Below are positions 14,246 through 33,690 of a DNA stretch of 33,690 nucleotides, in pieces. Source of the DNA: Akkermansia sp. Lineage in GTDB: Bacteria > Verrucomicrobiota > Verrucomicrobiia > Limisphaerales > SIBH01. The stretch lies in contig JAYVWQ010000078.1 in the NCBI GenBank assembly GCA_043785945.1, forward strand, positions 1 to 33,690, written 5' to 3'. A model generated the notes under the pieces. That model worked only from the letters and a program-made list of their open reading frames with translations, did not search any database and was not told the DNA's origin. Position numbers and translations under genes: made by a program. Position 1 is the stretch's first letter, and each line of letters begins with the position of its first letter.

Positions 14246-14263
14246 CAAGGCGTTTCCGGGAAA

Positions 14264-17900: not shown

Positions 17901-19267
17901 CCAGCGGCGGCGCGCGCGCCGTGCATCACATCGAGTCGCCCGCCATGATCAACCTCTGCCGCATGACCAACGTGCGGGAGATCGATGGCATCATTGCCAT
18001 CGTCTCCGTCATTCGTCCCGGCGCAGCGAATGAGTCCAAGAAACTTTCCTTCACCCGGCGTTATCAGGGCATGGAACCGGTTCACTATCCGCACCCCTCG
18101 CTGGAGCCGTGCTTGCGCAGCACCTTCGGACTGGTGGTCTATGAGGAACACATCCTGCAAATCTGCGAAGCCTTCGCCGGTCTGCCCGCCGGCCGCGCGG
18201 ATGTCCTGCGCCGGGCGCTGGTGAAACAGAAGCGCGCCGTCGTCGCCGAGATTGCCTTGGAGTTTGATGCGAGCGCCCGAGCGCGCGGACACGACGAGGC
18301 GAAGATTGCCGAAGTGTGGGAACTGGTCACGGGCTTCAACGGCTACGCTTTCAACAAGGCGCACTCCACGGCCTACGGGGTCGAGGCTTATCAGGCCGCG
18401 TGGCTGAAACGCTATCACCCGGCCGAGTTCATGGCCGGTGTGCTGACCAACGGCAAAGGCTTTTATCATCCGCTCGTCTATGTGCTCGAATGTCATCGGC
18501 TCGGCCTGAAGTTCCTGCCGGCGTCGGTCAACGAGCCGGGGCCGTCCTTCGTGCCGCATGGCCCGGCCATCCGCGTGCCGTTGACCCGCGTGAAGGGATT
18601 GACCACGCGCACCACGGATCGCCTCGTCGCCGCGCGGTTGGAAGGCGCGTTCACTTCGCTACGCGATTTTTTTCACCGCGTTGCGCCCACAGGCGAAGAA
18701 CTGGAGGCCATGATCCGTGCCGGAGCTTTCGATGAGTTCGGAGACGCACGCACGCGGCAGTTCTGGCAGGCGCAGCATCTGTTGAAGACTTTCGCGGGCA
18801 CCGCCGAGCCGGGCCAGGCATGGCTGCTGCCCCCACCGGGCTTGGAACAACTGCCCGGCCTTCCGCTCAATGAGCCGACGCGGCTGGAACGCCTGCAATC
18901 AGAAACGGAATTGTTCGGCTTCGCCGTCAGCGGCCATCCGCTCGAACTGTTCCCCGATGTGGCGTGGGACACATATTGCCCGGTCAATCGTCTCGGTCAG
19001 TTCATTGGTGAGACGGTCACAACTTGCGGCCTGGTGGTGGAACAACGCACGCATCATCAAGCCACGGGCGAGCCAATGAAATTCATGTCCATCGCCGACC
19101 GCACGGGCATCGTGGAAACAGAAATGTTCGCCGACAGCTACCGCAGCCACGCGCTCGCCACTGTCCGCTATCCGGTGCTGGAAGTGACGGCGACCGTCGA
19201 GCCATTCGAGAATGGACGCGGCTTTTCGTTGCGGATCATCAGGGCCGGAGAACCTAGGAAGAAGTAA
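14954..19267 (+). CDS. dnaE2: Single-ORF fusion: DinB-like Y-family DNA polymerase (aa 1 to about 350) + linker + DnaE2 error-prone Pol III alpha-like polymerase (aa about 421-1437)
   Basis: Y-family part: IVHLDADAFFAACEQ, SIDEGYCDLT (acidic catalytic residues present), NKLISSVASKFNKP and LPGVGPKT, plus a little-finger region. DnaE2 part: PHP domain FAPLRMHSHYSFLDS..VALTDTGNLHGAVEF, palm LPDIDIDFPHDRKDDV, KMDILAQGGL, and C-terminal OB fold (TVTTCGLVVEQR..MKFMSIADRTG). No stop or frame change lies between the parts. Confidence 0.85.
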   Translation: MDSKPPRSIVHLDADAFFAACEQAADAKLRGQPVAVGGTARGIIASASYEARKFGVFTPMPTVRARKLCPKLIVLSGDYERYEWFSDTMFGYCLDFTPDVEQTSIDEGYCDLTANRTKSAVVIAQIIRKAITQRLKITVSEGVGSNKLISSVASKFNKPAAFYEVRPGSERAFLSPLPVKWLPGVGPKTSLRLNAAGLGRIEQIAATPLDMLELVLGSQAATIRQFAHGLDDRLLVPKQARQKTFSKQETFGADITDEEYAEAVLRRMADELFADVRAEGRTVRTLNVRVRYNDMGEDQLSESLAEPTDLETDIYARLHTMLRKAWKRRVSLRLVSLKLSNLYDGRFRSELPLEVSAQRQEARGKLAGVIDELRRVHGHSALLRGHDFRLRTPPRAALEEVPKTAPRRLSIIIRPAKVTTFAPLRMHSHYSFLDSVLSPTALVELARQHHLPAVALTDTGNLHGAVEFVQAAQKAGIKPIVGVELPVEGGSLLLYVESARGYHQLCRLLSRHAERSAHDGDESSVANQQRRPFRRSELEGGTDGLLAAGDDAGWAELFPQRFYRLVTSRQTPNDFPAVAAPAVRYALPGDRQKYDIVQSIRTLTLLRETHPEKHADGRFHFRPPAELLGACGSHPEWLHHTLEIAERCHFDFPFGKPQFPDFHPPDGSTARAFLRRLVMDGLRSRYRERAAQFAPQVEEELNIIAAVGYESYFLMVWSILQDCRARGIEWITRGSAADSLVCYCLRISGVCPVRFDLYFKRFLNPERMALHKLPDIDIDFPHDRKDDVVDLIFARYGAETCAVVGGFSTFQARSAFAECAKVLGVGERDVRKFTERFPWGFGGGWVPDETAPKAGAALVELLQASPETRDLPVGEEPYRTALEMATVLDGRPRYPKMHPCGVVLSCQPMHELTPTFISNKRRATTHYDMDGVEEIGLVKMDILAQGGLAAMRDAKDALARRGLIVDLETLEPWDDPEVWEMIASGGARAVHHIESPAMINLCRMTNVREIDGIIAIVSVIRPGAANESKKLSFTRRYQGMEPVHYPHPSLEPCLRSTFGLVVYEEHILQICEAFAGLPAGRADVLRRALVKQKRAVVAEIALEFDASARARGHDEAKIAEVWELVTGFNGYAFNKAHSTAYGVEAYQAAWLKRYHPAEFMAGVLTNGKGFYHPLVYVLECHRLGLKFLPASVNEPGPSFVPHGPAIRVPLTRVKGLTTRTTDRLVAARLEGAFTSLRDFFHRVAPTGEELEAMIRAGAFDEFGDARTRQFWQAQHLLKTFAGTAEPGQAWLLPPPGLEQLPGLPLNEPTRLERLQSETELFGFAVSGHPLELFPDVAWDTYCPVNRLGQFIGETVTTCGLVVEQRTHHQATGEPMKFMSIADRTGIVETEMFADSYRSHALATVRYPVLEVTATVEPFENGRGFSLRIIRAGEPRKK

Positions 19268-19268
19268 C

Positions 19269-19616
19269 ATGGCTGTCGGTCAACTCTGGCTCTTTCCGCC
19301 GCCCCGACCTCTCGTCGAACGACTGGGTGAGGAGTTCTTTCGCACCCTGCCCACTGCGCCCGGCGTCTATCTCATGTGCGGCGAGCGCGAAGGCGTTCTT
19401 TACGTGGGCAAGGCGCGCAATCTGCGCAAGCGCCTCTCCAGCTACCGGGTCGCGAATCCCGAACGCCTCCCGCGTCGCATCATCCGCCTGCTGTATCAAG
19501 TTCGCCGCATCGAATTGGATGTGTGTGCCACGGAAGCCGCCGCACGGCACCGGGAGGAGGAATTGATCGGTGTCCTGCAACCGCGCTTCAATCGGGCTGG
19601 CGTGGTGTGGCCGTGA
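19269..19616 (+). CDS. Stand-alone GIY-YIG nuclease-domain protein (UvrC N-terminal / Cho-like), 115 aa
   Basis: The ATG lies 1 nt after the dnaE2 TAA (19265-19267). PGVYLMCGEREGVLYVGKARNLRKRLSSY closely matches the UvrC GIY-YIG signature. The downstream EEELIGVLQPRFNRAG supplies the conserved Glu and Asn. Confidence 0.8.
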   Translation: MAVGQLWLFPPPRPLVERLGEEFFRTLPTAPGVYLMCGEREGVLYVGKARNLRKRLSSYRVANPERLPRRIIRLLYQVRRIELDVCATEAAARHREEELIGVLQPRFNRAGVVWP

Positions 19617-19801: not shown

Positions 19802-21208
19802 ATGGAAATTCGCTTCTCATGCCCTGGCTGTTCACAACATCTTTCGGTTTCGCCGCGAGCAGCAGGACAAGCGGTTGAGTGTCCATCGTGCGGCCAGACT
19901 ATGACGGTTCCTTCTGCTTCGCCCGAACCGCCCTCGCTGGTGCCGACTCCCGAATCAGCTTCTGATCACACCGAAACTTTCGTGGTGCCAGCTCATGCTC
20001 CACCTCCCCCGCGCACGGATCAAGGCGATCTGACTTGTCCGGTCTGCTGGTTGAAATTTGACGCTGGAGACGTGATGCACGTCGCGGTGCATGACTCCCT
20101 GCGCGGCGATCCGGTGCTGGGGGAGGACGCACCACAACGCTTCCACGCCACGCGCTTCAACGACGCCAGCCAGGCGCTTGATGCGATGGGGCTGCCGTGC
20201 CTCGACGTGGCTTGTCCGCATTGTCGGCGCAAGTTTCCTCCCGGCTTTCTGGATGTGCCGTATCACATCATCTCATTGGTCGGTGATCAGAGCGCGGGCA
20301 AGTCGTATTACCTCAGCGTGATGGCGAAGGTATTCCCGGCGAGTCTGTACCGGCATTTCGGCGTCACCTGCCAGGACGCGGACCCGACCGGCAACGCACC
20401 GCTCAACGACATGAAAAGCGTGCTCTTTAGCGCGCAATCGCCGGAACAGGCACGTCTTGCCAAGACGCAACTCGAAGGCGCGATGTACGAACGCCTGCCG
20501 CGTCACGGTCGCATGGTCGCGCTGCCCAAACCTTTTGTTTATTCCTTGCGCGGCAATCACGGCGGCGACTCGGCGTGTTCTCTGATTTTTTACGACAACG
20601 CTGGCGAGCATTTTCAACCGGGCCGCGACGTAACGGAACAACCCGGTGCGCTGCATGTGGCGAGCGCGGCAGGTATTCTGTTTCTGTTTGATCCGTTCAA
20701 CAGCCCGGAGTTTCGCAAGTGCATCGGACGGACGGATGATCCGCAGATGGAAAAGCCCGCCATCGATCAACAAGACGTGATTCTTTCGGAAATGCGGTCG
20801 CGCATTCAAAAGATTCGGAACTTGCGCAGTGGGGAAAAAATCCCAACACCGCTCGCCGTGCTCGTGGGCAAGTGCGATGCGTGGCTGCACTTGCTCGAAG
20901 GCGGACCGCTGGCGCATCCGCTCGTGAACGGTGCGCTCTCACTCGACATCATTCGCACCAATTCGCGGCGCATCCGGGAATTTCTCGTTTCCGCCTGCCC
21001 AACGGTCGTGGCGAACGCCGAGGCGTTGAGCGAACATGTTGTCTTTTTCGCCGTCAGTGCGTTCGGTCACACGCCTGTAAAAATTGCGGGCAACGCCTAC
21101 GTGCCCGATCCCGCGCAGTTGGCTCCGGTGCAAGTGGAAGTCCCGCCGCTCTGGTTGTTGTCGCAAATTTCGCCGGGCCTCGTGCGGGCCACGGAAACCG
21201 TCGCCTGA
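19802..21208 (+). CDS. Double zinc-ribbon + Ras-like (TRAFAC) GTPase, 468 aa
   Basis: I prefer the start MEIRFSCPGC at 19802. The ORF-track extension back to 19376 overlaps the GIY-YIG gene and is Arg/Pro-rich junk. ZnR1 is CPGC-x16-CPSC. ZnR2 is CPVC...CPHC. G1 is GDQSAGKS (20282..20305), G3 is DNAGE (20594..20608), G4-like is VGKCD (20866..20877) and G5-like is VSAFG. Confidence 0.85.
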   Translation: MEIRFSCPGCSQHLSVSPRAAGQAVECPSCGQTMTVPSASPEPPSLVPTPESASDHTETFVVPAHAPPPPRTDQGDLTCPVCWLKFDAGDVMHVAVHDSLRGDPVLGEDAPQRFHATRFNDASQALDAMGLPCLDVACPHCRRKFPPGFLDVPYHIISLVGDQSAGKSYYLSVMAKVFPASLYRHFGVTCQDADPTGNAPLNDMKSVLFSAQSPEQARLAKTQLEGAMYERLPRHGRMVALPKPFVYSLRGNHGGDSACSLIFYDNAGEHFQPGRDVTEQPGALHVASAAGILFLFDPFNSPEFRKCIGRTDDPQMEKPAIDQQDVILSEMRSRIQKIRNLRSGEKIPTPLAVLVGKCDAWLHLLEGGPLAHPLVNGALSLDIIRTNSRRIREFLVSACPTVVANAEALSEHVVFFAVSAFGHTPVKIAGNAYVPDPAQLAPVQVEVPPLWLLSQISPGLVRATETVA

Positions 21209-21209
21209 C

Positions 21210-23699
21210 ATGCCGCAGCAACTCATCTACACCAGCGCACCGCGCGGACTGGCGGCAGGCCGGGCCGGCTTTTGCACGGTGGCGATGAGTGTGGGATTGC
21301 GTGAGGCGCTGGCGCTGAAACTGGAGCAGATCAGTTACTTCGATCATGGCGCGATGGGCGCGGGTGAGCAGGTGATTCGCGCCTTTCGTCTCATAGACCT
21401 TCGGGGCACCCGTTATTTTGTCCTCTCACGCGTGCAGGATTGCGGACTCGATTTCACGCAACGAACTAATTTCATCGCGCACCATCTGATCTTCACGCCG
21501 GAAGAAGTTTCTGACGTTGCCAGGCCACCGGAAATCTTCCGGCAATGGAACGGCTGGCTGACTCGCTGGGATGGTGAGCCAAGCGTTTTATCGGATAATG
21601 ACTGGGGCAACCTCTATGCAATTCCCAGCCGCCAGCCGCCGGCCCGCGCCTGGGCGCGACTCGCTGGCGATGCGATGAACGCCTTTGCTCTCCTTGAAAC
21701 GTCCGGTCTCCTGTTGAACGTCGAGGGCGTGGCGGATGACGCCGTGCTCGATTTGTTTGCCGAGTCCTTGGCGCTGCTGGAAGCGCGCGAGGCCCGCGAC
21801 TTCCGTGCCGCCGCCTGGCAGTTCACTTTCACCACGGCTTTACAGAATCAGGATGCCCCGGCGGAGTTTCGCTGGCGCTGCGTGCGCGGCGATGGCGGAG
21901 GGTTGACCAACCTAGGCTCGGCGCGCGTTCAGCCGCTGCTGCAACTTCGTCCGGCCCGCGTCAGCGTGGGCGAAGCGTCGTTCGCACGCTCCGGCTATCA
22001 GCCGCCGAAGATTCTCGCGGAGCCGAAAGACGCTTACGCAAGTGAAGGCGAAAGCGTGACATTGCGCGTGGACGTGAGCGGCCTGCCAACGCCGAATCGT
22101 TTCCAGTGGTTCAGTCTCTCCCGCACTGGCGCGGAAGAACCCCTCGCCGACGCGAGCAGCGCCGAGTTGAGCATCCGTCCGGCGCGCGGGATGAATCGTT
22201 ACTGCGTCAAGATTTCCAATCTGCGTGGTGACACCGTGATGAGCCGCGTGGCGCAAGTCTCCGTGGACGCGGCCGTGAGAGTGCCCGGTCTTCAAGCTCC
22301 TCGCACCACGTCCGCACCGGCGGGCGTTCACCAAACTGCAAGGGCCGCAAAAGAGTGGACGGCTGATCCGTTGGAAGCGGAGACATTTAGGCTCCAAGTG
22401 GAAGAACGCGAACGGAAGCGAAGCCGAAATCGGATGCTTTTAGTAACTGTCGCGGTTTTTGCTCTGGTTGGCATCGTGGTTGGATTCTTGGTGGTGAAAC
22501 GTCCTGACCTTTTTTTGAATCGGCACCGTGCCGATGCTTCGCAATTGGAGGGGAGCGACGAAACTAACAAGACCAATGAGAGAACACCACCTGTCACATC
22601 TCCTGCAAAACCCATACGCGACATTGGGGCCAACGAGCGCGTGGCCGAGTCGCAAGATGCCTTGAAGGAGAAGGTGTTTCTTGCGCTGTTGACAGCGAAG
22701 AGCGACATCCCGATTCGTGGAGCACTTGCCGCGAAGCTGCGGCGCTTTTTCGTCGGAACGACGAACGGATCGCCAATGTCCGTGGCAAGCAGCGATAAGC
22801 CAGATCGGGCGCTACTGCCGAAGGAGAAGGAACAAGAAATCAAAGCAGATCGGAAGATTGACATCAAAATCAGCACCAATTCGCTGCATCTGACGACGAA
22901 CAATACTGACGTGGTTTTGTCAGCTACCGTCTTAAAGAGTCCAGTCCTCCTTCGATTTGTCGATAAGTCTTCACCAATCGGGGAGTCCTTTCAGTTACTT
23001 GTGTGGCCGAATAATCCCGCCGTCCCGGCGGAATTGACGTTCGTTAATGCCCACCTCCAACTCATGGATGGGTGGCCGCAAATCCTTGCCGCGACTGAAG
23101 GTGAACATTTTTTCTTCAACGGGAATCACCCCGACATGGACACGGTTAAAAGCAACAAAATCGAACGCAGCTACGCAATCGAATACAAGCCCGCTTTTGA
23201 GACGAGACGGCGAGATGCAGCCAAAATGTTGACGACATACGAGTCTTGGCGCGACGCAACTGAGAAAATGGTTCGGCTTCGCGACAAGGTCGGCCTTGGG
23301 AAAACCAGCGCAGATTCATTGAATGGCATCTGGGACGAAGTTCAGGCTGTCTGCATCGAAGCTGTCGGAGCGACGCGGCGCGATTTCAATTTCAGCAATC
23401 CTCAAAACGACAATCGAAAAAGCGACGCGCAACGAATTGTGCAGGAATGGCGCTCTTTACGAAAACCAGACTTGGAATTGGCTGAGGCAGCTTTGAGTGG
23501 CCTCACCATTGATGCACTCGAACAAATCGTCGGCAACGGACAGCAATCCATGCGAACGCTTGATGGAGCGCGGCAGACTCTGAAAGAAAGAATCGACAGT
23601 GCGAAAGCGCAACAATCATTCTCCGCAGCCAAGATAACTTGCCAAATCCATTACGGGAAACCCGACGGGCAAGTGCTTGTGCAATTCAAAGTCAAATGA
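21210..23699 (+). CDS. Membrane-anchored protein: GTPase-associated-protein (GAP1-N2)-like N-terminal domain + Ig (I-set-like) domain + TM helix + about 390-aa C-terminal domain of unknown fold
   Basis: The ATG lies 1 nt after the preceding TGA. The N-terminus MPQQLIYTSAPRGLAAGRAGFCTVAMS resembles the QLHYTS..G..GFQ..A.S signature I recall for GAP1-type proteins. The Ig-like segment is PPKILAEPKDAYASEGESVTLRVDVSGLPTPNRFQWF...YCVKISNLRGDTVMSRVAQVSV (about 22002..22270). The TM helix is MLLVTVAVFALVGIVVGFLVV (about 22433..22495). The C-terminal half is visibly more A/T-rich than its surroundings. Confidence 0.8.
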   Translation: MPQQLIYTSAPRGLAAGRAGFCTVAMSVGLREALALKLEQISYFDHGAMGAGEQVIRAFRLIDLRGTRYFVLSRVQDCGLDFTQRTNFIAHHLIFTPEEVSDVARPPEIFRQWNGWLTRWDGEPSVLSDNDWGNLYAIPSRQPPARAWARLAGDAMNAFALLETSGLLLNVEGVADDAVLDLFAESLALLEAREARDFRAAAWQFTFTTALQNQDAPAEFRWRCVRGDGGGLTNLGSARVQPLLQLRPARVSVGEASFARSGYQPPKILAEPKDAYASEGESVTLRVDVSGLPTPNRFQWFSLSRTGAEEPLADASSAELSIRPARGMNRYCVKISNLRGDTVMSRVAQVSVDAAVRVPGLQAPRTTSAPAGVHQTARAAKEWTADPLEAETFRLQVEERERKRSRNRMLLVTVAVFALVGIVVGFLVVKRPDLFLNRHRADASQLEGSDETNKTNERTPPVTSPAKPIRDIGANERVAESQDALKEKVFLALLTAKSDIPIRGALAAKLRRFFVGTTNGSPMSVASSDKPDRALLPKEKEQEIKADRKIDIKISTNSLHLTTNNTDVVLSATVLKSPVLLRFVDKSSPIGESFQLLVWPNNPAVPAELTFVNAHLQLMDGWPQILAATEGEHFFFNGNHPDMDTVKSNKIERSYAIEYKPAFETRRRDAAKMLTTYESWRDATEKMVRLRDKVGLGKTSADSLNGIWDEVQAVCIEAVGATRRDFNFSNPQNDNRKSDAQRIVQEWRSLRKPDLELAEAALSGLTIDALEQIVGNGQQSMRTLDGARQTLKERIDSAKAQQSFSAAKITCQIHYGKPDGQVLVQFKVK

Positions 23700-26677
23700 A
23701 CCTTCTCGAAACCAAACGGCTGGTGCGGAAGATCGGGGAACTGCTCCACGAGCAGGGTGACGCGGCGATGGCCCCGAAGCTGGCGCAAGATTTTGTTGCC
23801 GCGTGTCGCGCCGTGATCGTGCGCTTGAACCAGTGCGAGGCGATGATTTCCTCCAACGAGGGGATGCAGGCGCTGCAACTCGCTGAGACGTCGCCGAATT
23901 TGATGGACCTCCTGGCTTCGCTGGAATTTCGCGAAGCAGCGGCTTGGCGAAAGTATTGCCGTGAGCACGAACTTCCGGTTGCGGAGACATTCGACGAACG
24001 CGCCGTCCACAAGCTGAACGAGTGCTACGCGCGCGGCATCAACACGGACCATCCCCTGTATCGTGATTACCGTCGCGCGATGGTGCTCAAGGATGACGAG
24101 GCTGCATTGACCGTTTTGCGCACCATCGGACGGATCAATACCGCCGATGACAATGCGCGTTCGGAACTGGCGCGGCTCGACCGCAAGGTTTTGAACGAGC
24201 GACTTGCCGCGCTGGGGCAATTGCTCGACAGCGGTTCTCCTGTAGAGATTGCGCGTGAGGTTAGCGACATCGAATCAAGCGCGTTTCAAAACAGTCCGGC
24301 GGGCGAGATTTGGCGCAGCGCGCAAGCGATTCGCTGCGACGTGTTGCTCGACGCCATTGCGGTGGACCGGCAGAGCAACGATTGGCGCAGCGCGCTTGAC
24401 CGTTTGGATTTCATAGCGGGATTGCAACGCGATTGGGATTTTTCTCTCGATGCGGCGGCGCAATCACGCTTCTCGGAACTGTGGGCCTGGGCGGAGAACG
24501 AACGATACAAGGATGAGCAGGATCGGCTTTTCAAGTCGCTGCTGGTGCAACTGCGCCACCTCGTCGATCTGAGCGAGGAAAAAGAAATCGCCGCGCGGGA
24601 AATCGAATTGCCGGAGTTGAAGGCCGATTTGGAAGAATTGCAGAAGAAGTGGCGAGCCATCGAACAGTTCGCGCGTCCGGTGCCGGACGATCTGACGGCG
24701 CGCTATCGCAAACGCGTGGCACTGGTGCAGGCGGAGGTTTCGCGGCGGGTACGGCTGCGGGTCCGCAACATCGCCATCGGTGTGGCAGCCGCATTGCTGT
24801 TGATCGCGGGCACAACTTGGACGTTTCAACAGCATCTCAAGGGCAAGGACTTCGTTCACCAACTTCAAGCGGCACGCGAGCAACGGCTGGCACGAACGGC
24901 GGAAAAACTCGTGGCGCACACGCGCGACACGGATCGTGGACTCTCGGGCAAGAGCGGCGTGCCGGCTGCGCTCGCGGAAACAGAAACTTTTCTCAAACGC
25001 GAACTCGGCCTGCTGGAAAGTTTCCAAGGAGCAACGCGCGAACTGCCATCCGACCTCGCGGGCTTGACCGGGGCGGAGCAATTGAAGGCCACTCATCAGC
25101 GGCTGGCGAATGTCACGAATCTGCTGGCGCAACTCGCGCCCGACTTGCGGGCGGAAAGCGAGCCGAAGCTGAACGCCTGGCGCGCCGCCTGGACGCGGCA
25201 TTTGTTCGAGCGCAGCACGGAATTGAACAAAAGCTTTGAGAGCGCATTGCGGCAAGCCGAGCAAAACGCGGCGCGGATGAATTTCTCCCTGTCCACCGCT
25301 GCCGCACGCGCGGACGTGGCGTCGGTGGGAGCGGAGTTGTCAAAACTCGCGGACGAGGAACAGGCGTTCACCGGAGCGTTGCGCTGGCGCAGTGAGTTGC
25401 TGCAACGGTCCAAGGAACTGCGCGACAAGCACAGCGCGTTTGCGGGTGAGTTGGGAAAGTTTGACGCCGCGTGGTCCGGGGTCGCGCGGGCGCGCAACAC
25501 CACCGACTTCAACGCATCCGTGGCCGCGCTGTCGCGCTCTGAATTTACCACCGCGCCAGAAGTGCGAGCCGCCGGTTCGGTGCGTGACCTGGAGTTTTCG
25601 GACGAGTCGCTGTTGCGCTCGTTGCTCTGCGGCAATGATGTCGGCCTCTGGAACCACATCAGCGGCTCCGCCCCGATGGATTTTATGCCGAAGGCCGTGA
25701 TGCCCGCCGAGAAAATGAAACTGCTCGAACTGAAAAACGAAGACGCGATCAACCCGGAGCATTACTGCTACTCACTGCGCCTCACCGTGGAGCCGCCGTC
25801 CTCGGTGACGTGGATCACGGAAGGCAAACTCAACAACACCGAACAGATTTGGAGAAAAATACGGGCTTTTGTACCCACCGCTGCCACAACTTCATGCGAA
25901 TTTCGTATGGCTGAATACGGGTGGTTCGATGGTCGCTACGTTTTACCTTCAAAGCAGCAACTTCAAGACGTTCGGCTGATCGGGCCATGCACGGAGGCAA
26001 AATCCTTCTACGCACTCCGGCTGCCGGAACTGATGGCGCTGCACAACGACACCTACCAATTTCCACTGCTCAAGAAGCTGGATGAACTCAAGACGGGGCG
26101 CGAGGACTCGCCTCTTTTCCGGGCCTACCTTTTCCTACGGCTGTGCGAATTGATGGACTTGCAGCCGGAAGGTTGGGGCGTGCCATTCGCTCCTTCATTG
26201 GCGGCGGATCGCGAGCGGCTGGTGAGCGCGGGCGGGTCAGAAGTGCGCAGCGGCGACTGGTACGTGCCAACACGCGGGCAGAGGCTGGCTACGCCGTTGC
26301 AGAAAGTTTTCGAGCAAGCCGCCAGCATCTCGTACTGGGAACAGGCGCAAACGTCGGCCAAAGTTTTTCGGGCCACACTCGCCGCCGGTGTCCGCTACGT
26401 GGGGTACGTGGACGCGGACGGCAAATTGCGGGCGGGCGAAACGACCACGGGCGAAATTTGGGGCTGGGAATCTGGCACGCGCAAACCAGCCGTCCTCGCG
26501 GTTAGCACACCTTCCGGTTGGAAATCCATTTCGGCACCGCTTCCCTGCTCGCCGCTGTTCGCATTCGCGGAAGACCGCGCCGCGCTGCTGGTCAAGGCTG
26601 GCGTGAAGCCTGGCGACACGATGATGAATTCCGCGCTGCCCGTCGTGTTCCGCACGGTCGCTCCTAAAACTAAATGA
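23696..26677 (+). CDS. Large (993 aa) predominantly alpha-helical / coiled-coil protein with one TM helix
   Basis: ATGA overlap with the upstream gene (23696..23699). Start at MNLLETKRLVRKIGELL. TM helix IAIGVAAALLLIAGTTWTF (about 24769..24825). Composition is helical and heptad-like throughout. I recognise no catalytic motif. Confidence 0.8.
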   Translation: MNLLETKRLVRKIGELLHEQGDAAMAPKLAQDFVAACRAVIVRLNQCEAMISSNEGMQALQLAETSPNLMDLLASLEFREAAAWRKYCREHELPVAETFDERAVHKLNECYARGINTDHPLYRDYRRAMVLKDDEAALTVLRTIGRINTADDNARSELARLDRKVLNERLAALGQLLDSGSPVEIAREVSDIESSAFQNSPAGEIWRSAQAIRCDVLLDAIAVDRQSNDWRSALDRLDFIAGLQRDWDFSLDAAAQSRFSELWAWAENERYKDEQDRLFKSLLVQLRHLVDLSEEKEIAAREIELPELKADLEELQKKWRAIEQFARPVPDDLTARYRKRVALVQAEVSRRVRLRVRNIAIGVAAALLLIAGTTWTFQQHLKGKDFVHQLQAAREQRLARTAEKLVAHTRDTDRGLSGKSGVPAALAETETFLKRELGLLESFQGATRELPSDLAGLTGAEQLKATHQRLANVTNLLAQLAPDLRAESEPKLNAWRAAWTRHLFERSTELNKSFESALRQAEQNAARMNFSLSTAAARADVASVGAELSKLADEEQAFTGALRWRSELLQRSKELRDKHSAFAGELGKFDAAWSGVARARNTTDFNASVAALSRSEFTTAPEVRAAGSVRDLEFSDESLLRSLLCGNDVGLWNHISGSAPMDFMPKAVMPAEKMKLLELKNEDAINPEHYCYSLRLTVEPPSSVTWITEGKLNNTEQIWRKIRAFVPTAATTSCEFRMAEYGWFDGRYVLPSKQQLQDVRLIGPCTEAKSFYALRLPELMALHNDTYQFPLLKKLDELKTGREDSPLFRAYLFLRLCELMDLQPEGWGVPFAPSLAADRERLVSAGGSEVRSGDWYVPTRGQRLATPLQKVFEQAASISYWEQAQTSAKVFRATLAAGVRYVGYVDADGKLRAGETTTGEIWGWESGTRKPAVLAVSTPSGWKSISAPLPCSPLFAFAEDRAALLVKAGVKPGDTMMNSALPVVFRTVAPKTK

Positions 26678-27474
26678 ATCCAAACCCGCCACCGCCCTTT
26701 TCATCGGAGCCGAGTTACGACGGCCCGCTGCGATTGAGTTGGCGTGGTCGCGAGGAGGGGCCGTTCCTGTGGGCGGAGATTGAGCGTCGGCTGACTGCGA
26801 ATGAGATCGGCCTGTTCCATGAAGTGCAAGTGGACGGCGCATGGATGACGCTGCGCGCCTTCCTTGAATTGCGTGAAGCCGCACAACTAGAGGCAAAGGC
26901 GCGACGGGAAGAAGCCGAGCGTGTTGCCAATGTCCACGCGGCGCGTGCCGCCGAGGACCGCGCCGCGCGGCATCAGTCCGAAGTGCTCGCGGAGGAAAAG
27001 CGCAAGAACGATTTGATGGCGGCGGCGCTTGGCCTGCCACAAGGGAAGAAAAGTCCGATGTCACTCCCACGCTTGCTGCGGAACATCGCGCTTGTCCTGG
27101 TGCTGGTGTGTGGCGTATTTGCCGCGTATCAGGCGTATCGCATTCCCGAACTCACCGCGCTCTCGGCCCGCGCCCGCGAAGTCGCCGCGAAATTCAACTA
27201 CGTCGATTCGCCGACGGCGAGCCGCCTGGGCATCAATCTTTTCGCGTCGCTCTTTGGTGATGCGCGTGATGTGCGCGACGCCATTGCGGAAGTTTCGCAG
27301 ACCATCGGCGACAAAGAGAAGCTTCAGCAACGCTATCAATGGATGGCGACGCAATTGAGCGCGGAGTTGGAGACGGCGGGCATCGCGCGCAACTGGGCGC
27401 TGCTCCTGGGTTGCTGCTTCGCCATCGCTGCGATTTGTTTTCACTTCGGAGCACGCAACGACCAAACCGTATGA
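26674..27474 (+). CDS. GYF_2 (DUF4339)-like domain protein with coiled coil and two TM helices
   Basis: ATGA overlap at 26674..26677. The GYF-like region is LRLSWRGREEGPFLWAEIERRLTANEIGLFHEVQVDGAWMTLRAFLE. A charged coil follows. TM helices are LLRNIALVLVLVCGVFAAYQAY and NWALLLGCCFAIAAICFHFG. Confidence 0.8.
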   Translation: MNPNPPPPFSSEPSYDGPLRLSWRGREEGPFLWAEIERRLTANEIGLFHEVQVDGAWMTLRAFLELREAAQLEAKARREEAERVANVHAARAAEDRAARHQSEVLAEEKRKNDLMAAALGLPQGKKSPMSLPRLLRNIALVLVLVCGVFAAYQAYRIPELTALSARAREVAAKFNYVDSPTASRLGINLFASLFGDARDVRDAIAEVSQTIGDKEKLQQRYQWMATQLSAELETAGIARNWALLLGCCFAIAAICFHFGARNDQTV

Positions 27475-28358
27475 ACACTGCCGCCACCTCAGCACCTTTG
27501 CCCGCCGCCGCCCCTGAACTTGCGTTGGCGTGGACACAACAAGATTACGAGAACCGCATCGGTTTTCGCGGCGGGCGCTACATGAGCGTGAATCATCTGC
27601 TCGCGTTTCTTGCGGCGCTGCTCGGCACGGTGGCGGCGTTCGCGCTCGCGGTCTTTGTCCTCAAACCGATTTCTTTCACCGCGCCCGTCGGCGAAATGTT
27701 CCTTCGGCCTGGCAACCAGTTCACCGTTATTCCGGCGACTGTATTTTTCTTCTGGGGTGCGGCCGTGCTTTTCATCAAACACCACAAATTGAAGCTTCAG
27801 GAACGGTCGCTCGCGCTGTCGCCGGTGCCGGCGGAACCGGAGTTTGTGCTGACTGAGGCCACGGCGAATTCGGTGCTCTCACGGCTGCACGCAATTGTGG
27901 ATCACCCGCGCCATTTTGTTTTGCTCAACCGCATCGACCGCGCGTTGTCGAACTTGCGGAACATAGGACAGGTGAACGACGTGTCCTCCATCTTGCGCGC
28001 CCAGGCGGAGAACGATGAGGATCACGTCGCGTCGAGTTACACGCTGGTCAACGGGCTGGTCTGGGCCATCCCCGTGCTGGGCTTCATCGGCACCGTGCAG
28101 GGCTTGAGCATGGCCATCGGGAAGTTCGGCCAGACGCTCCAAACGTCGGGCGACATCTCGGCCATCCGCCAGTCGTTGCAAGGCGTGACCGGCGGACTGG
28201 CGACGGCCTTCGAGACAACGCTCGTGGCGCTGGTCTTCGCGCTGATCCTGCAACTCTGGATCACCTTTCAACAACGGCGTGAGATGGCGTTCCTCGATGA
28301 GTGCAATGACTACTGCCATTCGCATGTCGTGGCGAAACTTCGTCTGACCAATCGCTGA
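27471..28358 (+). CDS. MotA/TolQ/ExbB-family proton (ion) channel protein
   Basis: ATGA overlap at 27471..27474. Multiple TM helices are present. The family signature near the C-terminus is LVWAIPVLGFIGTVQGLSMAI ... VTGGLATAFETTLVALVFALILQLW. Confidence 0.88.
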   Translation: MNTAATSAPLPAAAPELALAWTQQDYENRIGFRGGRYMSVNHLLAFLAALLGTVAAFALAVFVLKPISFTAPVGEMFLRPGNQFTVIPATVFFFWGAAVLFIKHHKLKLQERSLALSPVPAEPEFVLTEATANSVLSRLHAIVDHPRHFVLLNRIDRALSNLRNIGQVNDVSSILRAQAENDEDHVASSYTLVNGLVWAIPVLGFIGTVQGLSMAIGKFGQTLQTSGDISAIRQSLQGVTGGLATAFETTLVALVFALILQLWITFQQRREMAFLDECNDYCHSHVVAKLRLTNR

Positions 28359-28361
28359 CTC

Positions 28362-29444
28362 ATGGCGAGCCGTCTGCGCAGAAATAACTGGGCGCGAATC
28401 AGTTTCTTCGCGTTCCAGGACATTATCACTGCGGTCAGCGGCATCCTGATTCTGATCACGCTCATCCTCGCGACTGATTTGGATCGCACCACGAGCGCAC
28501 GTTCCACCGAGCTTCAACCCGAATTGGAAATGCGGCTGGCCCAATTGCTGGAAGAACAAACGGCACTGGAACTGTTGAACCAGCAATTGCGGCAGTCGCT
28601 CACCGGAGCGCGCAACGCACCGGGACTCGAACAACTCACGAATGAAATTCGTGACCTGAAACAGCGTCTCGACGCGATGCAGGGCAAATTTACGAATTTG
28701 CTGGCCGTTGCCACCGCGCAACGGGCCGCTCAAGCGGAACGCGACGCCCGTCTGGGATTGGCGGCTTTCAGCGCCGACATCGACGCGCTGAACAAGGAAA
28801 ACACAAAACTGGCCGCACTGGTCGCCGATGCACGGCGCAAAATGGACCGCGCAGAATCCGAAGTGAAGCGCGCCGAGAACATCGTGCTCAAAAGCCGTGC
28901 GCGATCTGGAATGTGGGTGCTTCCTGATGACCGCAGCACAACAAAAGAACCGTTGCTCGTGACGATCAGTGGCAGCGAAGTAATTGCGGAGCGTTTCGAC
29001 CAACCGGACAAACAACTGAGATGGGCGAGCGGCGGGGCGTCTGCGGACTTTCGCCGTTTCCTCGCGGTCGTGAACAAGGACAATCAGTACATCGTGTTCT
29101 TCGTGCGCCCGTCCGGCATCCGGCTTTTTGAGCAGTTGTCTGACCTCGCCCGCGCGCAGCAAATCGACATCGGGTTCGACGCCGTTGAAGAAAAGCAAGA
29201 AGTGCATTTCTCCAAGCCGCCGCCGATTGAGGCAGACCCCGATACCACAACACCCGTTCGTCCGCCGGTTGGTCCCGGAACGATGTCGGTCGGAGATTCT
29301 TCACCTGCAACACCCATCAAATCTGCGACGGCTGAACCGGCGACTGTGCCGGCGAGCAAGCCGCCGGCTGTTGCTGCGCCCGCCGTCCCCTCTGCCCCTG
29401 CTTCATGGTGGCGGCGTCTTCTAAAATCCTTGGGACTCGCATGA
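28362..29444 (+). CDS. ExbD/TolR/MotB-like single-pass stator partner 1 (TM Asp, coiled coil, globular C-terminal domain, Pro-rich tail)
   Basis: Starts 3 nt after the MotA-like stop. The N-terminus RISFFAFQDIITAVSGILILITLILA has an Asp codon at 28419..28421. A long coiled coil follows. The C-terminal domain is ..YIVFFVRPSGIRLFEQLSDLARAQQIDIGFD.. followed by a P/A-rich tail. Confidence 0.75.
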   Translation: MASRLRRNNWARISFFAFQDIITAVSGILILITLILATDLDRTTSARSTELQPELEMRLAQLLEEQTALELLNQQLRQSLTGARNAPGLEQLTNEIRDLKQRLDAMQGKFTNLLAVATAQRAAQAERDARLGLAAFSADIDALNKENTKLAALVADARRKMDRAESEVKRAENIVLKSRARSGMWVLPDDRSTTKEPLLVTISGSEVIAERFDQPDKQLRWASGGASADFRRFLAVVNKDNQYIVFFVRPSGIRLFEQLSDLARAQQIDIGFDAVEEKQEVHFSKPPPIEADPDTTTPVRPPVGPGTMSVGDSSPATPIKSATAEPATVPASKPPAVAAPAVPSAPASWWRRLLKSLGLA

Positions 29445-30358
29445 GCTTTCGCCGCCAATCACGGGGCGACAGCCTCGACCTGCTGCTCGACACGATGTGC
29501 AACACGTTCGGTGGCATCATCATGCTCGCGGTGCTGGTGACGTTGCTTTCCAAGCAGGAGCGCAGTGGACGCGCTACCGTCGATTCCGAGGAAATGATGC
29601 GTCGGAGAATCAGCGAGGGTGAACTGACTTTGAAGGAAAGCCGCGCGGCGAACGCCAACCTCGTCACCGATGCGGGCGACTCTGACACCAAGAAGCGTTT
29701 GGAAGCCGTAGCGGAAAAAAAGGCGCTGCGATCCATGCTCGAAGCCTCGGCGCGCGACGCCGAGGCTGCAAATGCAAGCCAGCCGCTCGCCGCTCGGGAT
29801 GCCGCCGCGCGTATGGCGCAGTTGCGCGAGGAAATGACGAAAGCCATTGCCACGCGCACTGATTTGAGCAACCAGTTGTCCACGGCGGAGATCAACACGC
29901 GCCGACTCACCGCGCGGGCCAGTGATTTGGCAAAGCAGGCCGCCGCATTGCAGAGCGCGTCCGTGCAAAAGCTGCGTTTGCCGAAAGAACATTTCACCGG
30001 CAAGTCGGTCGTGAACGTGATTATCCAATACGGCAAGGTCTATCCGGTGCATACCACGTCCAGAGCAAGAAACACGGCACACGTTGAATTCACCAAGAAT
30101 GGAAATGGCGTGACTGTTCGGCCCCTGCCGGAAGCTGGCCTCGATGTACGGAGCAATGATTGGAAGAACTGGCTGAACCGGCTCGCGGCCAACCGGGAAT
30201 ACATTGGGTTTTATGTGTTCGAGGACTCATTCGGCGCTTTCAACGCAGCCAAGAAGGCCACAGTGGACGCAGGATTTGATTATGGATGGGAACCGGAACA
30301 ATTGGCCTCCGGTCCCCTGTCATTCGGCGCAGTGGGTTCCCAGCCAAAAGCTCAGTAA
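29441..30358 (+). CDS. ExbD/TolR/MotB-like single-pass stator partner 2 (paralog of the preceding gene)
   Basis: ATGA overlap at 29441..29444. The N-terminus SLDLLLDTMCNTFGGIIMLAVLVTLL has an Asp codon at 29489..29491. A coiled coil follows. The C-terminal domain ..EYIGFYVFEDSFGAFNAAKKATVDAGFDYGWE.. has the same pattern as the upstream paralog. Confidence 0.75.
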   Translation: MSFRRQSRGDSLDLLLDTMCNTFGGIIMLAVLVTLLSKQERSGRATVDSEEMMRRRISEGELTLKESRAANANLVTDAGDSDTKKRLEAVAEKKALRSMLEASARDAEAANASQPLAARDAAARMAQLREEMTKAIATRTDLSNQLSTAEINTRRLTARASDLAKQAAALQSASVQKLRLPKEHFTGKSVVNVIIQYGKVYPVHTTSRARNTAHVEFTKNGNGVTVRPLPEAGLDVRSNDWKNWLNRLAANREYIGFYVFEDSFGAFNAAKKATVDAGFDYGWEPEQLASGPLSFGAVGSQPKAQ

Positions 30359-31374: not shown

Positions 31375-33690
31375 ATGCCCACGGAAGCCGATGCCAGAAT
31401 GGTAGTTGACCGCCTCTTGCGCGAGGCGGATTGGGACATTGAAAACAAGTCTGTCGTCTCCACAGAAGAAGCCGCAGCGGACGGACGCGCGGATTACCTC
31501 CTGAAAAGTTCCCGCACCCGGCCCCTGTGTGTCGTCGAGACGAAGCGATTCTCCACTGATCCCTATTCCGCGAAGACGCAGACCAAAGATTACGCCATTG
31601 GCCTCGGCGCTCCGTTCATCATCCTGAGCAACGGGCGCGAGCATTACTTCTGGGATTACGAAAACGGGGACGCCCGGCCCATCCTCGGCTTTCCCACGCA
31701 AGCCGACCTGGAGCGCCGTGCCAATCTCCGGCAGCACCGGCAGGGCGACATTGCCCAATCTCTTCGCGTCATTCCCCTGCCGACGCACTTCCGCTTCAAG
31801 GGCGAAGACGTGGAAGCACGTCCTTACCAACTGGGTTGCCTCAATGCCGCCGACAATGCGCTCATCACAGGCCGTCGGCGGATGCTGTTCGAGAAAGCCA
31901 CCGGCACCGGAAAGACGCTCACCATCGCCATGCTGATGAAGCGATGGTTTCAAGCCGCCGCCGTCTCGCGCGTCCTGTTTCTCGCCGACCGCATTGAACT
32001 GGCGAAGCAGGCCAAGGAAACCTTCGACGATTATCTGCGCGACTACCCGACCACGATTCTCTACGGCGGCAAACGCAGCCTAGAGGGACAAATCGTTGTC
32101 GGCACGCTCGACACGATTGCGGGGCAGCTTGGGCCGGACGGCTTCGGGCACGCCTACTTTGATCTCGTCGTCACCGATGAGTGCCATCGTTCCATCTACA
32201 ACACTCACCGCGCCACGCTTGCGCATTTCGACGCCATCCATATCGGCCTGACCGCCACGCCGAATCCCGGCGAGTTGCATTGGGTGAGCGAACACGAACG
32301 CCAGCTCATCCGCAGCACCTACATGTTCTTTGATTGCTGGGACAGCGCCGCGCAGGAAGGCCGCCCCACCTTCGCCTACACGATTCGTGAGGGCATCCGG
32401 GAAAAGTTCCTCGCCGACTACAAAATCTACTCCGCTGAATCAGTGCTGACTTTCGAGGGCACGGAATGGGAGGAGGAAGAAATCGGCTTCTCCGATTGGG
32501 GACGCACCGCCGAGAGCGAGGACCGGCTCAAGCTCATCATTGACGAATACTTCCGAGTCGAGGAGGAACGCCCGCAGCCGCACCCGCGCAAGACCATCGT
32601 GTTCGCCGTGGGCGAGAGACAGGCCGTGATATTGGAACGCCTGTTCAACCAACTTCTCCCGGATGCCGCCTGCCTGCGCATCGCGCAGCAGACGAACCGT
32701 TCGCCCGCCGAAGTCCGCCAGAGCTTTGCGCAGAAAATCACCTGCTACTCGAACAACGGGAATCCCAAGCCCATCATTGACCGTTTCAAGTTCGACCCGC
32801 TGCCCATCATCGCCATTTCCGTGGACATGCTCGACACCGGCTATGACCACAAAGAGATTGAGAATCTGGTCATGCTCCGGCCCACGACTTCGGCCATCAA
32901 ATACGCGCAGATGCGCGGGCGCGGCAGCCGCCTCTGTCCGCGCATCGGCAAGACCTCGTTCCTGATTTACGATTTCGTCGGCAATCATTCCCGGTTCAAC
33001 GACCCCGGCGCGCAATACCACCAGCCCAAGCAAATCGGACGACGCCCACCGCCCGGCGGGCCGGGGCCAGGGCCAGAACCCGGCCCCGGACCAACGCCAC
33101 CACCGCCGCCCGGCCCGACGCCCCCGCCCCGCGAGTTCACCGTCATCCCGCTCGGCGAGAAGGCGGATGAGATGCGCCGCCGCGAACTCATTCACGTCGG
33201 CCCGGAGGGCATGGCGATTGACCGCAAGACGTATCAAGATAACTGGTTCAAGCAGATTCAGGAATTGCGCGACACCGATCCCGCCGTCCGCAAAATCATG
33301 GCGGGCGAACCCCTGACGGAAAGCGAATGGGAAGAACTCGCGCACAAGCTCAACGCGCCGCAATTCTGGTTCGAGGAATCCGCGCTGCGGAAAGCCTTCG
33401 AGCAACCGTCCGGTTCACTGTCCGATTTCATCCGGGCCGCGCTTGGTTTGTATGAACTGCCCACGCGCCAGCAGCGGGTCGAACGCGCCTTCAATGTTTG
33501 GGTGGCGGAAAATTCCAGCAGCATCAATCCCGATCAGGCCCGGCTCTTGAGCCTGTTGCGCAATGTAGTTTCCGCCACCGTGTCCGAAGCGAAATACGTG
33601 GTGCTCGACCCCAGCATTTTCACCCACCCGCCGTTCACGTTCCAAGGCGGACGCGCCCGCGCCGAAGCCATTTTTGGCCGCGACCGTCTC
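31375..33690 (+). CDS. Type I restriction R-subunit-like protein, EcoEI-like architecture (N-terminal PD-(D/E)xK nuclease, SF2 DEAD/DEAH helicase, EcoEI_R_C-like tail); 3' end cut by the window edge
   Basis: This ORF is absent from the ORF track because it has no stop in the window. My translation from ATG 31375 is open to 33690. It starts MPTEADARMVVDRLLREADWDIE..ADYLL..VVETKR (HsdR_N-type nuclease). Helicase motif I is EKATGTGKT, motif II is VVTDECHRS and motif III is GLTATP. Later motifs are ISVDMLDTGYD and QMRGRGSR. The C-terminal region (..FIRAALGL..) is EcoEI_R_C-like. Confidence 0.85.
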   Translation, partial: MPTEADARMVVDRLLREADWDIENKSVVSTEEAAADGRADYLLKSSRTRPLCVVETKRFSTDPYSAKTQTKDYAIGLGAPFIILSNGREHYFWDYENGDARPILGFPTQADLERRANLRQHRQGDIAQSLRVIPLPTHFRFKGEDVEARPYQLGCLNAADNALITGRRRMLFEKATGTGKTLTIAMLMKRWFQAAAVSRVLFLADRIELAKQAKETFDDYLRDYPTTILYGGKRSLEGQIVVGTLDTIAGQLGPDGFGHAYFDLVVTDECHRSIYNTHRATLAHFDAIHIGLTATPNPGELHWVSEHERQLIRSTYMFFDCWDSAAQEGRPTFAYTIREGIREKFLADYKIYSAESVLTFEGTEWEEEEIGFSDWGRTAESEDRLKLIIDEYFRVEEERPQPHPRKTIVFAVGERQAVILERLFNQLLPDAACLRIAQQTNRSPAEVRQSFAQKITCYSNNGNPKPIIDRFKFDPLPIIAISVDMLDTGYDHKEIENLVMLRPTTSAIKYAQMRGRGSRLCPRIGKTSFLIYDFVGNHSRFNDPGAQYHQPKQIGRRPPPGGPGPGPEPGPGPTPPPPPGPTPPPREFTVIPLGEKADEMRRRELIHVGPEGMAIDRKTYQDNWFKQIQELRDTDPAVRKIMAGEPLTESEWEELAHKLNAPQFWFEESALRKAFEQPSGSLSDFIRAALGLYELPTRQQRVERAFNVWVAENSSSINPDQARLLSLLRNVVSATVSEAKYVVLDPSIFTHPPFTFQGGRARAEAIFGRDRL

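Follow-up and report, generated by a model that had tools for sequence, protein, structure and literature searches.

What kind of machine is encoded where a zinc-ribbon GTPase and a MotA/ExbB-type channel are packed into one and the same operon? The question is raised by a 33,690-nt stretch of DNA from Akkermansia sp. (assembly GCA_043785945.1, contig JAYVWQ010000078.1, positions 1 to 33,690; the whole stretch is referred to as the window), in which seven genes, here designated g1 to g7, lie on the + strand between positions 19802 and 30358. The system formed by these genes is real, robustly conserved and unstudied. According to the reading developed below, the seven-gene set would encode one inner-membrane machine, and this reading, taken jointly with a GTPase-gated motor as part of it, is regarded as an even call between right and wrong.

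Each of the seven open reading frames (ORFs) begins with ATG and continues in frame to its stop codon: g1 (19802–21208, 468 residues), g2 (21210–23699, 829 residues), g3 (23696–26677, 993 residues), g4 (26674–27474, 266 residues), g5 (27471–28358, 295 residues), g6 (28362–29444, 360 residues) and g7 (29441–30358, 305 residues). From g1 to g7 the junctions are, in order, a 1-nt gap, three 4-nt ATGA overlaps, a 3-nt gap and a fourth ATGA overlap of the same length. Frames and junctions were re-derived from the sequence and agree throughout with the preliminary description of this DNA, in which the genes had been read as a single co-translated unit; that reading is backed by the junctions as well as by synteny across genomes, the loss of which had been named beforehand as the outcome that would speak against it. 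Scans for promoters and terminators at the operon boundaries gave no signal beyond the shuffled expectation.

Scanning one genome per species with g5 yielded 60 loci. The synteny was evaluated in 54 loci with sufficient flank, most of them from Verrucomicrobiota and some from Desulfamplus. The seven-gene set was colinear in 51 of these 54 loci, the single components being detected in 51 (g6 and g7), 50 (g1 and g3), 47 (g2) and 38 (g4) of them, and a sub-clade of five loci devoid of the GAP1-type gene g2 still has g1 beside g3–g7. Among 117 distinct g5 sequences, 91 were accompanied by a motor partner plus g1 or g3, and independent gene calls on metagenome contigs yielded the identical seven-gene order and Pfam pattern. 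The order is kept in dozens of species of two phyla, down to 45–50% identity of g5; since the same gene order recurs across loci, the juxtaposition of GTPase and motor is not fortuitous.

With respect to its occurrence, the window has a G+C content of about 60%, its remaining genes include PSD/PSCyt and DUF1552 proteins of the type found in the Planctomycetes–Verrucomicrobia–Chlamydiae (PVC) group, and the nearest loci elsewhere belong to metagenome-assembled genomes (MAGs) of Verrucomicrobiota. A g5 profile scan of species-representative genomes returned at least 545 candidate stretches, the weaker part of which may be other MotA subfamilies; the best 80 of them are nearly all from Verrucomicrobiota, including Prosthecobacter, Brevifollis, Chthoniobacter and Methylacidiphilales. 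Furthermore, scanning from the Desulfamplus copy revealed a clade in about 12 Desulfamplus/Desulfobacterales genomes and one Planctomycetota MAG, and the existence of the Desulfamplus/Desulfobacterales clade contradicts the earlier proposal of a PVC-specific apparatus. The version found in Desulfamplus magnetovallimortis (NZ_LT828556.1, L052/L108, 10.8–15.1 kb) has about 4 kb extra between the g5 and the g6/g7 homologues, and its g3 and g4 are too diverged for detection by tblastn.

Some operon contigs (L001, L005, L046, L048, L064, L067, L069 and L096) are labelled as non-verrucomicrobial MAGs (Heliomicrobium, Dongiaceae, Saccharimonadales, Binatia, Nanopelagicales, Sulfotelmatobacter, Bifidobacterium and Baltobacteraceae); the genes on them are 51–77% identical to verrucomicrobial ones, and the labels probably reflect binning contamination rather than true hosts. 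In about 12 loci, one or two added same-strand genes are located just downstream of g7 (e.g. L023:12778–14115 and L045:5881–7875). One type of their products consists of a zinc ribbon, a transmembrane (TM) helix, a low-complexity region and a C-terminal domain with a weak match to DUF2135; the other has a zinc ribbon, a TM helix, a Gly-rich region and a vWA-like DxSxS motif recognized by eye, with no vWA match in Pfam.

The channel g5 and the candidate B subunits g6 and g7

As judged from its sequence, g5 is a divergent channel of the MotA/ExbB/TolQ family, corresponding to the A subunit of ion-driven motors. The MotA_ExbB domain (PF01618) was matched at residues 163–269 (27957–28277) with an E-value of 3.9e-9 and 36.8 bits, the cut-off being 22.9, and four TM helices were found by the TM scan. 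The motifs invariant in the g5 family, PVxGFxGTV in TM3 and AFxTT in TM4, correspond to the pore motifs of ExbB/TolQ (G-T-V and A-x-x-T-T). Behind them, the cytoplasmic C-terminal segment FLDECNDYCH (residues 274–283, 28290–28319) is also invariant in the family, with Cys278, Cys282 and His283 kept in all 30 sequences, and may be a metal- or partner-binding site. The best named matches to the g5 core, weak as they are, come from the ZorA models of PADLOC and NCBIfam, which cover only TM3–TM4 at 17–23 bits (the NCBIfam ZorA cut-offs are 100 and 700); the tolQ model TIGR02796 gave 14 bits against a cut-off of 221.

The two genes that follow encode proteins with a single N-terminal TM helix in N-in orientation, and both helices are strongly conserved and carry an aspartate, the codons of which (28419–28421 for Asp20 of g6 and 29489–29491 for Asp17 of g7) had already been correctly located. 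In the alignment of g6, Phe16, Phe18, Asp20 and Pro250 are invariant; the TM helix is followed by a periplasmic coiled coil, a conserved α/β C-terminal domain (YxVFxVRPSG...GxDxxEE) and a Pro/Ala-rich tail. This tail (29230–29444) is of variable length and ends, in the window's clade, with SWWxR(L/F)L..LGL; shorter g6 homologues possess neither the Pro/Ala-rich part nor this terminal motif. In g7 the TM motif is LLLDTMCNxFGG, its Asp17 being kept in at least 90% of the 27 sequences taken from loci and in all 54 obtained from databases. A helical periplasmic region (about residues 50–174) precedes a conserved α/β C-terminal domain (residues 189–295) that was modelled by AlphaFold2 with a predicted local distance difference test (pLDDT) score of about 90, the alignments for this model and for that of g3 having been built from database homologues; none of the 171 homologues of g7 is named. 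The proteins g6 and g7 are paralogues, hhalign giving a probability of 99.2% and an E-value of 7.6e-20.

Both proteins had been described earlier as ExbD-like. While single-pass paralogues with a TM aspartate they certainly are, homology to ExbD/TolR escaped detection by every tool used. Neither full-length nor coiled-coil-deleted g6 and g7, nor the 155-residue sister proteins, matched ExbD, TolR or OmpA in Pfam; their profiles retrieved nothing from the PDB but coiled-coil and designed-protein noise; hhalign against ExbD and TolR of Escherichia coli (NC_000913.3) gave probabilities of 0.2% and 3.2%, respectively; and when every ORF of the loci was searched by jackhmmer with ExbD or TolR as the starting sequence, no link to g6/g7 emerged. 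Foldseek with the g7 model had no significant match in the PDB, TolR (5by4) ranking 26th with an E-value of 0.77. Since no homology test was significant, g6 and g7 are not called members of the ExbD family. Their position beside g5, their topology and the conserved aspartate are the reasons for considering them candidate B subunits. Even in the Agl system, AglQ and AglS share just 8.5% and 21% identity with TolR (PMC11761067); TolR-like subunits can thus diverge strongly, so that the negative results lower the chance that g6/g7 are ExbD proteins and not the chance that they work like them. The coiled-coil columns have been lost jointly in g6 and g7 of both the L044–L051 clade and L053. The lengths of the two proteins covary with a Pearson r of 0.52, the Spearman coefficient not being significant and the Pro-rich tail of g6 blurring the lengths; with joint shortening seen in only two independent cases, the covariation is no more than suggestive of a heterodimeric stalk.

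A phmmer search of g5 against 1.84 billion representatives returned 181 matches with E ≤1e-30 and 1347 with E ≤1e-10. Beyond the subfamily of about 300 residues to which g5 belongs, these comprise proteins of 450–980 residues with the same channel core and a long tail, the matches of which to ZorA models are moderate only. In five of six loci with a tailed channel, the next one or two downstream genes are homologues of g6/g7 (E-values 1e-12 to 1e-23); in such sister loci (L157:103–9760, L158:258–13593, L159:4233–9090 and L161:9001–11296) the g6-type protein has serine at the position of the TM aspartate and the g7-type protein retains the aspartate. Homologues of g1, g3 or g4 were not found in the sister loci, and two of the five informative ones contain a giant kinase-CHAT-FGE-sulfatase protein together with an ECF sigma factor. 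Because it is found in loci without g1, g3 and g4, the g5–g7 trio looks like a portable module provided with different cytoplasmic heads. It is tentatively proposed, with a confidence falling somewhat short of balance, that the trio may constitute an unrecognised branch of the 5:2 ion-driven motors with its own family of B subunits, that is, a portable trans-envelope sensing or actuating module powered by the proton motive force (PMF), the head being either the DO-GTPase/GAP1 pair or a ZorA-like tail. If this is true, the seven-gene version would be the first case of a 5:2 motor with a GTPase wired to it at the genetic level.

The GTPase g1, its GAP1-type partner g2 and the membrane proteins g3 and g4

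The first gene encodes a GTPase with two zinc ribbons, the first at residues 1–35 and the second, of the CPxC...CPxC type, at residues 79–141 (20036–20224), connected by a Pro-rich linker (about residues 36–75) read from the sequence. The GTPase motifs are intact: the P-loop GDQSAGKS at residues 161–168 (20282–20305), the Walker B motif DNAGE at residues 265–269 (20594–20608) and the KxD motif (KCD within GKCD) at residues 357–359 (20870–20878). In the family alignment, the four cysteines of the second ribbon, the glycine and lysine of the P-loop and the DxxG with the subsequent glutamate are kept, and the KxD is near-invariant. The CPxC...CPxC ribbon is invariant in the family; the first ribbon is found in the window's clade, and in some homologues a GYF_2 or FHA domain takes its place. 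The window's g1 matches the Pfam family DO-GTPase2 with an E-value of 6.7e-5, just short of the curated cut-off, and the same family matches 25 of the 26 members of the g1 family, at best with 1.6e-9. No Ras or Roadblock match was obtained from Pfam. As regards the earlier name, a Ras-like GTPase with a double zinc ribbon, the ribbons and the GTPase stand; the protein is to be placed with DO-GTPase2 (TRAFAC class) and not with the MglA/Ras family. Since the TM scan revealed no TM helix, g1 is taken to be cytoplasmic.

The g2 gene starts 2 nt past the g1 stop, and this pairing of GTPase and GAP1 is repeated on independent contigs. Its product begins with a GAP1-N2 domain (PF20013; residues 2–124, 21213–21581; E-value 1.1e-22, 81 bits against a cut-off of 24), followed by an Ig_3 domain (residues 265–326, 22002–22187; 3.2e-7) and a TM helix (residues 411–429, 22440–22496); the N-in orientation is inferred from a cluster of Arg/Lys flanking that helix. 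The region of about 400 residues behind the helix is periplasmic and weakly conserved among loci, and tblastn alignments of the window's g2 elsewhere are limited to the N-terminal 230–480 residues. Apart from GAP1-N2 and one Ig_3, nothing was found in g2 by Pfam; GAP1-M and GAP1-C, expected in a system of the DO-GTPase/GAP1-N2 type, were not detected, both of which could be hidden by divergence, and no separate FNIII protein is present among the seven proteins according to Pfam. The matches of g1 to DO-GTPase2 and of g2 to GAP1-N2 bear out the connection, drawn in the preliminary description, of a GTPase/GAP1-like pair to the systems described by the group of Aravind.

The five loci mentioned above (L027, L029, L032, L034 and L056) represent a six-gene version in which g1 is directly followed by g3. 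Their GTPases have lost the Walker-B glutamate (DNQGGDF, DPAGDDY), and the genes upstream of them are housekeeping ones (CarB, HEAT/cytochrome c, MCP).

The g3 protein belongs to no family in Pfam, NCBIfam or PADLOC, and every one of its 119 database homologues is annotated as hypothetical. It has a single TM helix (about residues 352–370, 24749–24805); in the AlphaFold2 model (mean pLDDT 88) about 350 residues of cytoplasmic helical repeats precede the helix, and about 620 residues comprising periplasmic repeats and two β-rich subdomains follow it. On the basis of this model, g3 is a predicted helical-repeat scaffold. An identity could not be assigned by fold, since Foldseek against the PDB gave only generic TPR/solenoid matches with a TM-score of about 0.07.

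The g4 protein starts with a conserved GYF_2-like domain of about 50 residues (about residues 18–65, 26725–26868) and has two TM helices (residues 134–152 and 237–255) preceded by a charged coiled segment. Trp23, Gly25 and His49 of the N-terminal domain are invariant in the alignment. GYF_2 was seen in five of 41 homologues, all matches being below the Pfam threshold; the protein is therefore called GYF-like, and this is one of the weaker component assignments, although all seven hold. Its TM module changes with the clade (TM2 in 15, DUF6264 in six, RDD in three and DUF4190 in three cases).

Comparison with described systems

According to the text of Kaur et al. (eLife 2020; Kaur, Burroughs, Iyer and Aravind), DO-GTPase/GAP1 pairs form GTPase-centric conflict systems defined by prediction; in those of the GAP1-N2 type the GTPase bears two zinc ribbons and GAP1 is anchored by a TM helix. 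They occur in Verrucomicrobia and Planctomycetes, and in planctomycetes a linked gene may encode a GYF protein with a fused TM-rich region (PMC7159879). The operon shares with them the double-zinc-ribbon GTPase with the Walker-B glutamate, followed by a GAP1-N2 gene with a C-terminal TM helix, as well as the membrane-proximal organisation, the occurrence in Verrucomicrobia/Planctomycetes and a GYF plus TM-rich protein. It differs by the addition of a MotA/ExbB channel, two Asp-TM paralogues and a scaffold of about 1,000 residues, which are constant and not variable: g3 and g5–g7 are constant over the loci, the variation being confined to the periplasmic region of g2, the TM module of g4 and the N-terminus of g1. 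Themes treated by Kaur et al. are tubulin, HSP70/GrpE, kinase/PP2C, SLATT, FGS and a component with rapidly evolving FNIII repeats, and the words MotA, ExbB, ExbD, TolQ, TolR and proton have zero occurrences in the text of that paper (PMC7159879); in its figures or source tables, these neighbourhoods may still be listed with the motor unnamed. Full-text literature searches retrieved no paper joining a MotA/ExbB motor to DO-GTPase/GAP1 and no experimental study of DO-GTPase/GAP1 systems, and a 2025 survey of MotAB relatives leaves the GTPase unmentioned. The claim that the operon matches none of the known systems must hence be divided: the g1–g2 core and the GYF/TM-rich protein have already been described, as far as the text of that paper goes (PMC7159879), the core being known as a prediction, and the motor trio and g3 are the new part.

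The closest parallel in organisation is the Agl-Glt/MglA machinery of Myxococcus xanthus. There, an AglR pentamer encloses an AglQ/AglS heterodimer, GltG has an FHA domain before its TM helix and a giant TPR scaffold is provided by GltI (PMC11761067). In GltJ, a zinc-ribbon/linker/GYF region faces the cytosol, where it binds both MglA-GTP and a Pro-rich sequence of AglZ, and the freed zinc ribbon recruits the MglB GAP (PMC11135422). The comparison with Agl and MglA drawn earlier is thus apt, and stronger than had been noted, as Agl-Glt also possesses zinc-ribbon/GYF adaptors, an FHA domain, a TPR scaffold and a TolR-like heterodimer (PMC11135422, PMC11761067). Common to both are one TolQ/MotA-like subunit with two distinct TolR-like ones (here by architecture), a GTPase switch that is read out at the membrane by way of zinc-ribbon and GYF domains, and a platform containing FHA domains and a large scaffold of helical repeats. 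In contrast to Agl-Glt, the GTPase of the operon is a DO-GTPase2 and not MglA, the MglB (Roadblock) GAP, AglZ and the envelope proteins GltA–K are missing, GTPase and motor are encoded in one operon, the zinc ribbons are borne by the GTPase itself and a link to motility is not known. Neither the operon nor its recurrent flanks contain Glt-like genes.

With Zorya the operon shares the use of a MotA/ExbB-family motor beyond motility and transport, and ZorA-like tails are found in the sister family closest to g5. It differs in that g5, with 295 residues, is tailless and its ZorA scores are far under the cut-offs, that g6 and g7 are without an OmpA-type peptidoglycan-binding domain and that a GTPase/GAP1 pair is present instead; PADLOC found no match to ZorC, ZorD or ZorE among the seven proteins. 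A resemblance to ExbB-ExbD-TonB and TolQ-TolR-TolA consists in a PF01618 channel gene followed by genes for single-pass Asp-bearing partners, and the long periplasmic single-pass proteins g2 and g3 could act in a TonB/TolA-like manner. The differences are two distinct coiled-coil B-type subunits with no match to ExbD/TolR in sequence or fold, four TM helices in g5 (MotA-like) and not three, and a GTPase hard-wired to the motor; TonB, TolA, TolB and Pal were not matched among the seven proteins by Pfam or NCBIfam. The absence of TonB/TolA/Pal, flagellar genes, ZorC/D and a peptidoglycan-binding ZorB, stated in the preliminary description, was confirmed by the Pfam, PADLOC and NCBIfam scans of the seven proteins. 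Assignment to a known defence system was rejected as well, PADLOC giving weak matches to the ZorA TM core only.

Proposed mechanism and rival explanations

From the component identities, the paralogy of g6 and g7, the conserved residues and the synteny, we infer a stoichiometry of g5 to g6/g7, protein contacts, a gating and an output of the following kind. In an ion-driven motor of the 5:2 type, g5 would make up the outer ring and enclose a g6/g7 heterodimer, the periplasmic coiled coils and C-terminal domains of which would extend toward the cell wall or the outer membrane. Within the membrane, g2 and g3, both single-pass proteins, would dock on the motor together with the GYF-like adaptor g4, and these three would keep the zinc-ribbon GTPase g1 attached to the cytoplasmic face of the motor; a candidate ligand of the GYF-like domain of g4 is the Pro-rich linker of g1. 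Whether g1 is in its GTP or its GDP state, which the GAP1-N2 domain of g2 would help to set, would decide if ion flow is coupled to the periplasmic domains of g2 and g3. The outcome would be a GTPase-gated, PMF-powered trans-envelope transducer of force or signal, on a platform built like the inner-membrane one of Agl-Glt/MglA with a GTPase of an unrelated family. A GTPase-gated motor of this kind is plausible. As to its role, sensing or signalling of envelope events (conflict or surveillance) is most likely, rather than locomotion, and this is the weakest step of the proposal; the preference is due to the role predicted for the g1–g2 core, the variable sensor-like regions and the company kept by the sister motors.

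Several observations weigh against this proposal. The g5 protein is very divergent, its family profile, when compared with the PDB, reaching TolQ alone and with an E-value of 0.11, and homology of g6/g7 to ExbD/TolR/MotB (PF02472, OmpA-like) was non-significant in sequence-profile, profile-profile and fold searches alike. The GAP1 protein is not indispensable, since the five-locus sub-clade is without a GAP1-N2 gene and has lost the Walker-B glutamate. A conflict role of DO-GTPase/GAP1 systems has itself been proposed from computation only, in the text of Kaur et al. (PMC7159879). No recognisable toxic effector is present in the operon, and none of its seven genes is of the variable kind, all being conserved. 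Finally, the flanks of the loci are mostly housekeeping genes (DnaA, GlmM, CarB, RpoC, sulfatases), and they are shared by 57–70% of the locus pairs with at least 90% g5 identity and by 11–27% of those with 70–90%. The system is hence a stable chromosomal feature among close relatives and patchy over larger distances; housekeeping, shared flanks suit an ordinary cellular machine no less than they do an immune system.

These flanks, together with the conservation, are fitted about equally well by a cellular, Agl-like mechanical role. The operon would then encode a housekeeping or behavioural envelope machine, i.e. a force transducer of the Agl-Glt/Tol/Ton kind under spatial or temporal control by the GTPase in the style of MglA and with no conflict role, for which surface movement, adhesion, outer-membrane tethering or remodelling, and division may be named as uses. 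Among the alternatives it is the one that survives best, and as a whole it is regarded as rather doubtful. Besides the housekeeping flanks common to close relatives and the conservation of all seven components, it is favoured by the spread of the system in one phylum, including cultured Prosthecobacter, Brevifollis and Chthoniobacter; Prosthecobacter and Chthoniobacter are described as non-motile, which counts against it. The parts list agrees with the inner-membrane platform of Agl-Glt/MglA (PMC11135422, PMC11761067); however, the operon is not linked to genes for Glt-like proteins of the outer membrane or periplasm, TonB/TolA, Pal or adhesins, its distribution is patchy and crosses phyla (Desulfamplus, one Planctomycetota MAG), and variation as strong as that of the periplasmic region of g2 and of the adaptor modules is unusual for housekeeping.

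Abortive infection or dormancy, in which g5/g6/g7 would be a plugged ion channel that is unplugged when the DO-GTPase/GAP1 pair senses an invader, with collapse of the PMF and growth arrest or death as the consequence, is an unlikely explanation. It would agree with the origin of the g1–g2 core among predicted conflict systems with membrane-directed effectors, e.g. SLATT pores, as given in the text of Kaur et al. (PMC7159879), with the description of ExbD and TolR dimers as channel plugs (PMC11761067), with the lack of any other effector-like enzyme in the operon and with the HsdR-like, YhcG, T5orf172 and GIY-YIG genes in the window's flanks. A simple depolariser, however, would need neither two stalked and headed B paralogues nor a scaffold of about 1,000 residues; moreover, the loci have no general siting in defence islands, their flanks are stable between close relatives and the seven proteins gave nothing in PADLOC beyond the weak matches to the ZorA TM core. 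A pure PMF-dissipating effector is possible and accounts for fewer parts than the GTPase-gated transducer. A fortuitous adjacency of a GTPase/GAP1 system and an unrelated MotA/ExbB-like transporter, to which the motor trio without GTPase in the sister loci and the mostly motor-less GAP1-N2 systems in the text of Kaur et al. (PMC7159879) might point, is highly improbable in view of the seven-gene order with its overlapping stop and start codons recurring in dozens of species of two phyla and of the GAP1-less sub-clade that still pairs g1 with g3–g7.

Few 5:2 ion-driven motors have been characterised, namely the flagellar stator, Ton, Tol, Agl, GldLM and Zorya, and with each of them a new field began. 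Their activation, and the structures against which they push, are general questions in this area. The operon offers a direct route to testing the switching of a 5:2-type motor by a GTPase, and would give the first mechanistic handle on DO-GTPase/GAP1 systems. Because the switch, the adaptors and the motor are encoded in one conserved operon, the proposed contacts are directly testable with few proteins, and genetics is feasible as the system occurs in cultured genera (Prosthecobacter, Desulfamplus magnetovallimortis). Should the motor prove to serve a conflict system as sensor or effector, immunity would have recruited such a motor a second time, independently of Zorya; should it prove to be a cellular machine, an Agl-like GTPase-steered apparatus would exist outside myxobacteria.

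The neighbourhood of the operon had been characterised as accessory-like. This is true of the window, the flanks of which look accessory, with LexA, Y-family/DnaE2, GIY-YIG, YhcG, T5orf172 and HsdR-like genes, and not general for the family, as followed from a PADLOC scan of 142 random flank ORFs of 64 loci: strong matches were limited to a handful of ORFs (SNF2 helicase, kinases, mad3/mad6), and a defence-island context was rejected for want of a defensible enrichment. Downstream of the operon, an HsdR-like type I restriction gene with HSDR_N, ResIII and EcoEI_R_C domains occupies 31375–33690 and continues past the end of the window. Upstream, a small GIY-YIG gene is located at 19212–19616 and LexA at 14208–14906, the latter being followed by a polymerase ORF. 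Y-family and DnaE2-type polymerases are usually encoded by separate genes of an SOS mutagenesis cassette; the ORF at 14954–19267 (+ strand, 1437 residues) apparently joins both in a single frame, with IMS and IMS_C at residues 12–342 and PHP, DNA_pol3_alpha, finger and HHH_6 domains at residues 424–1267.

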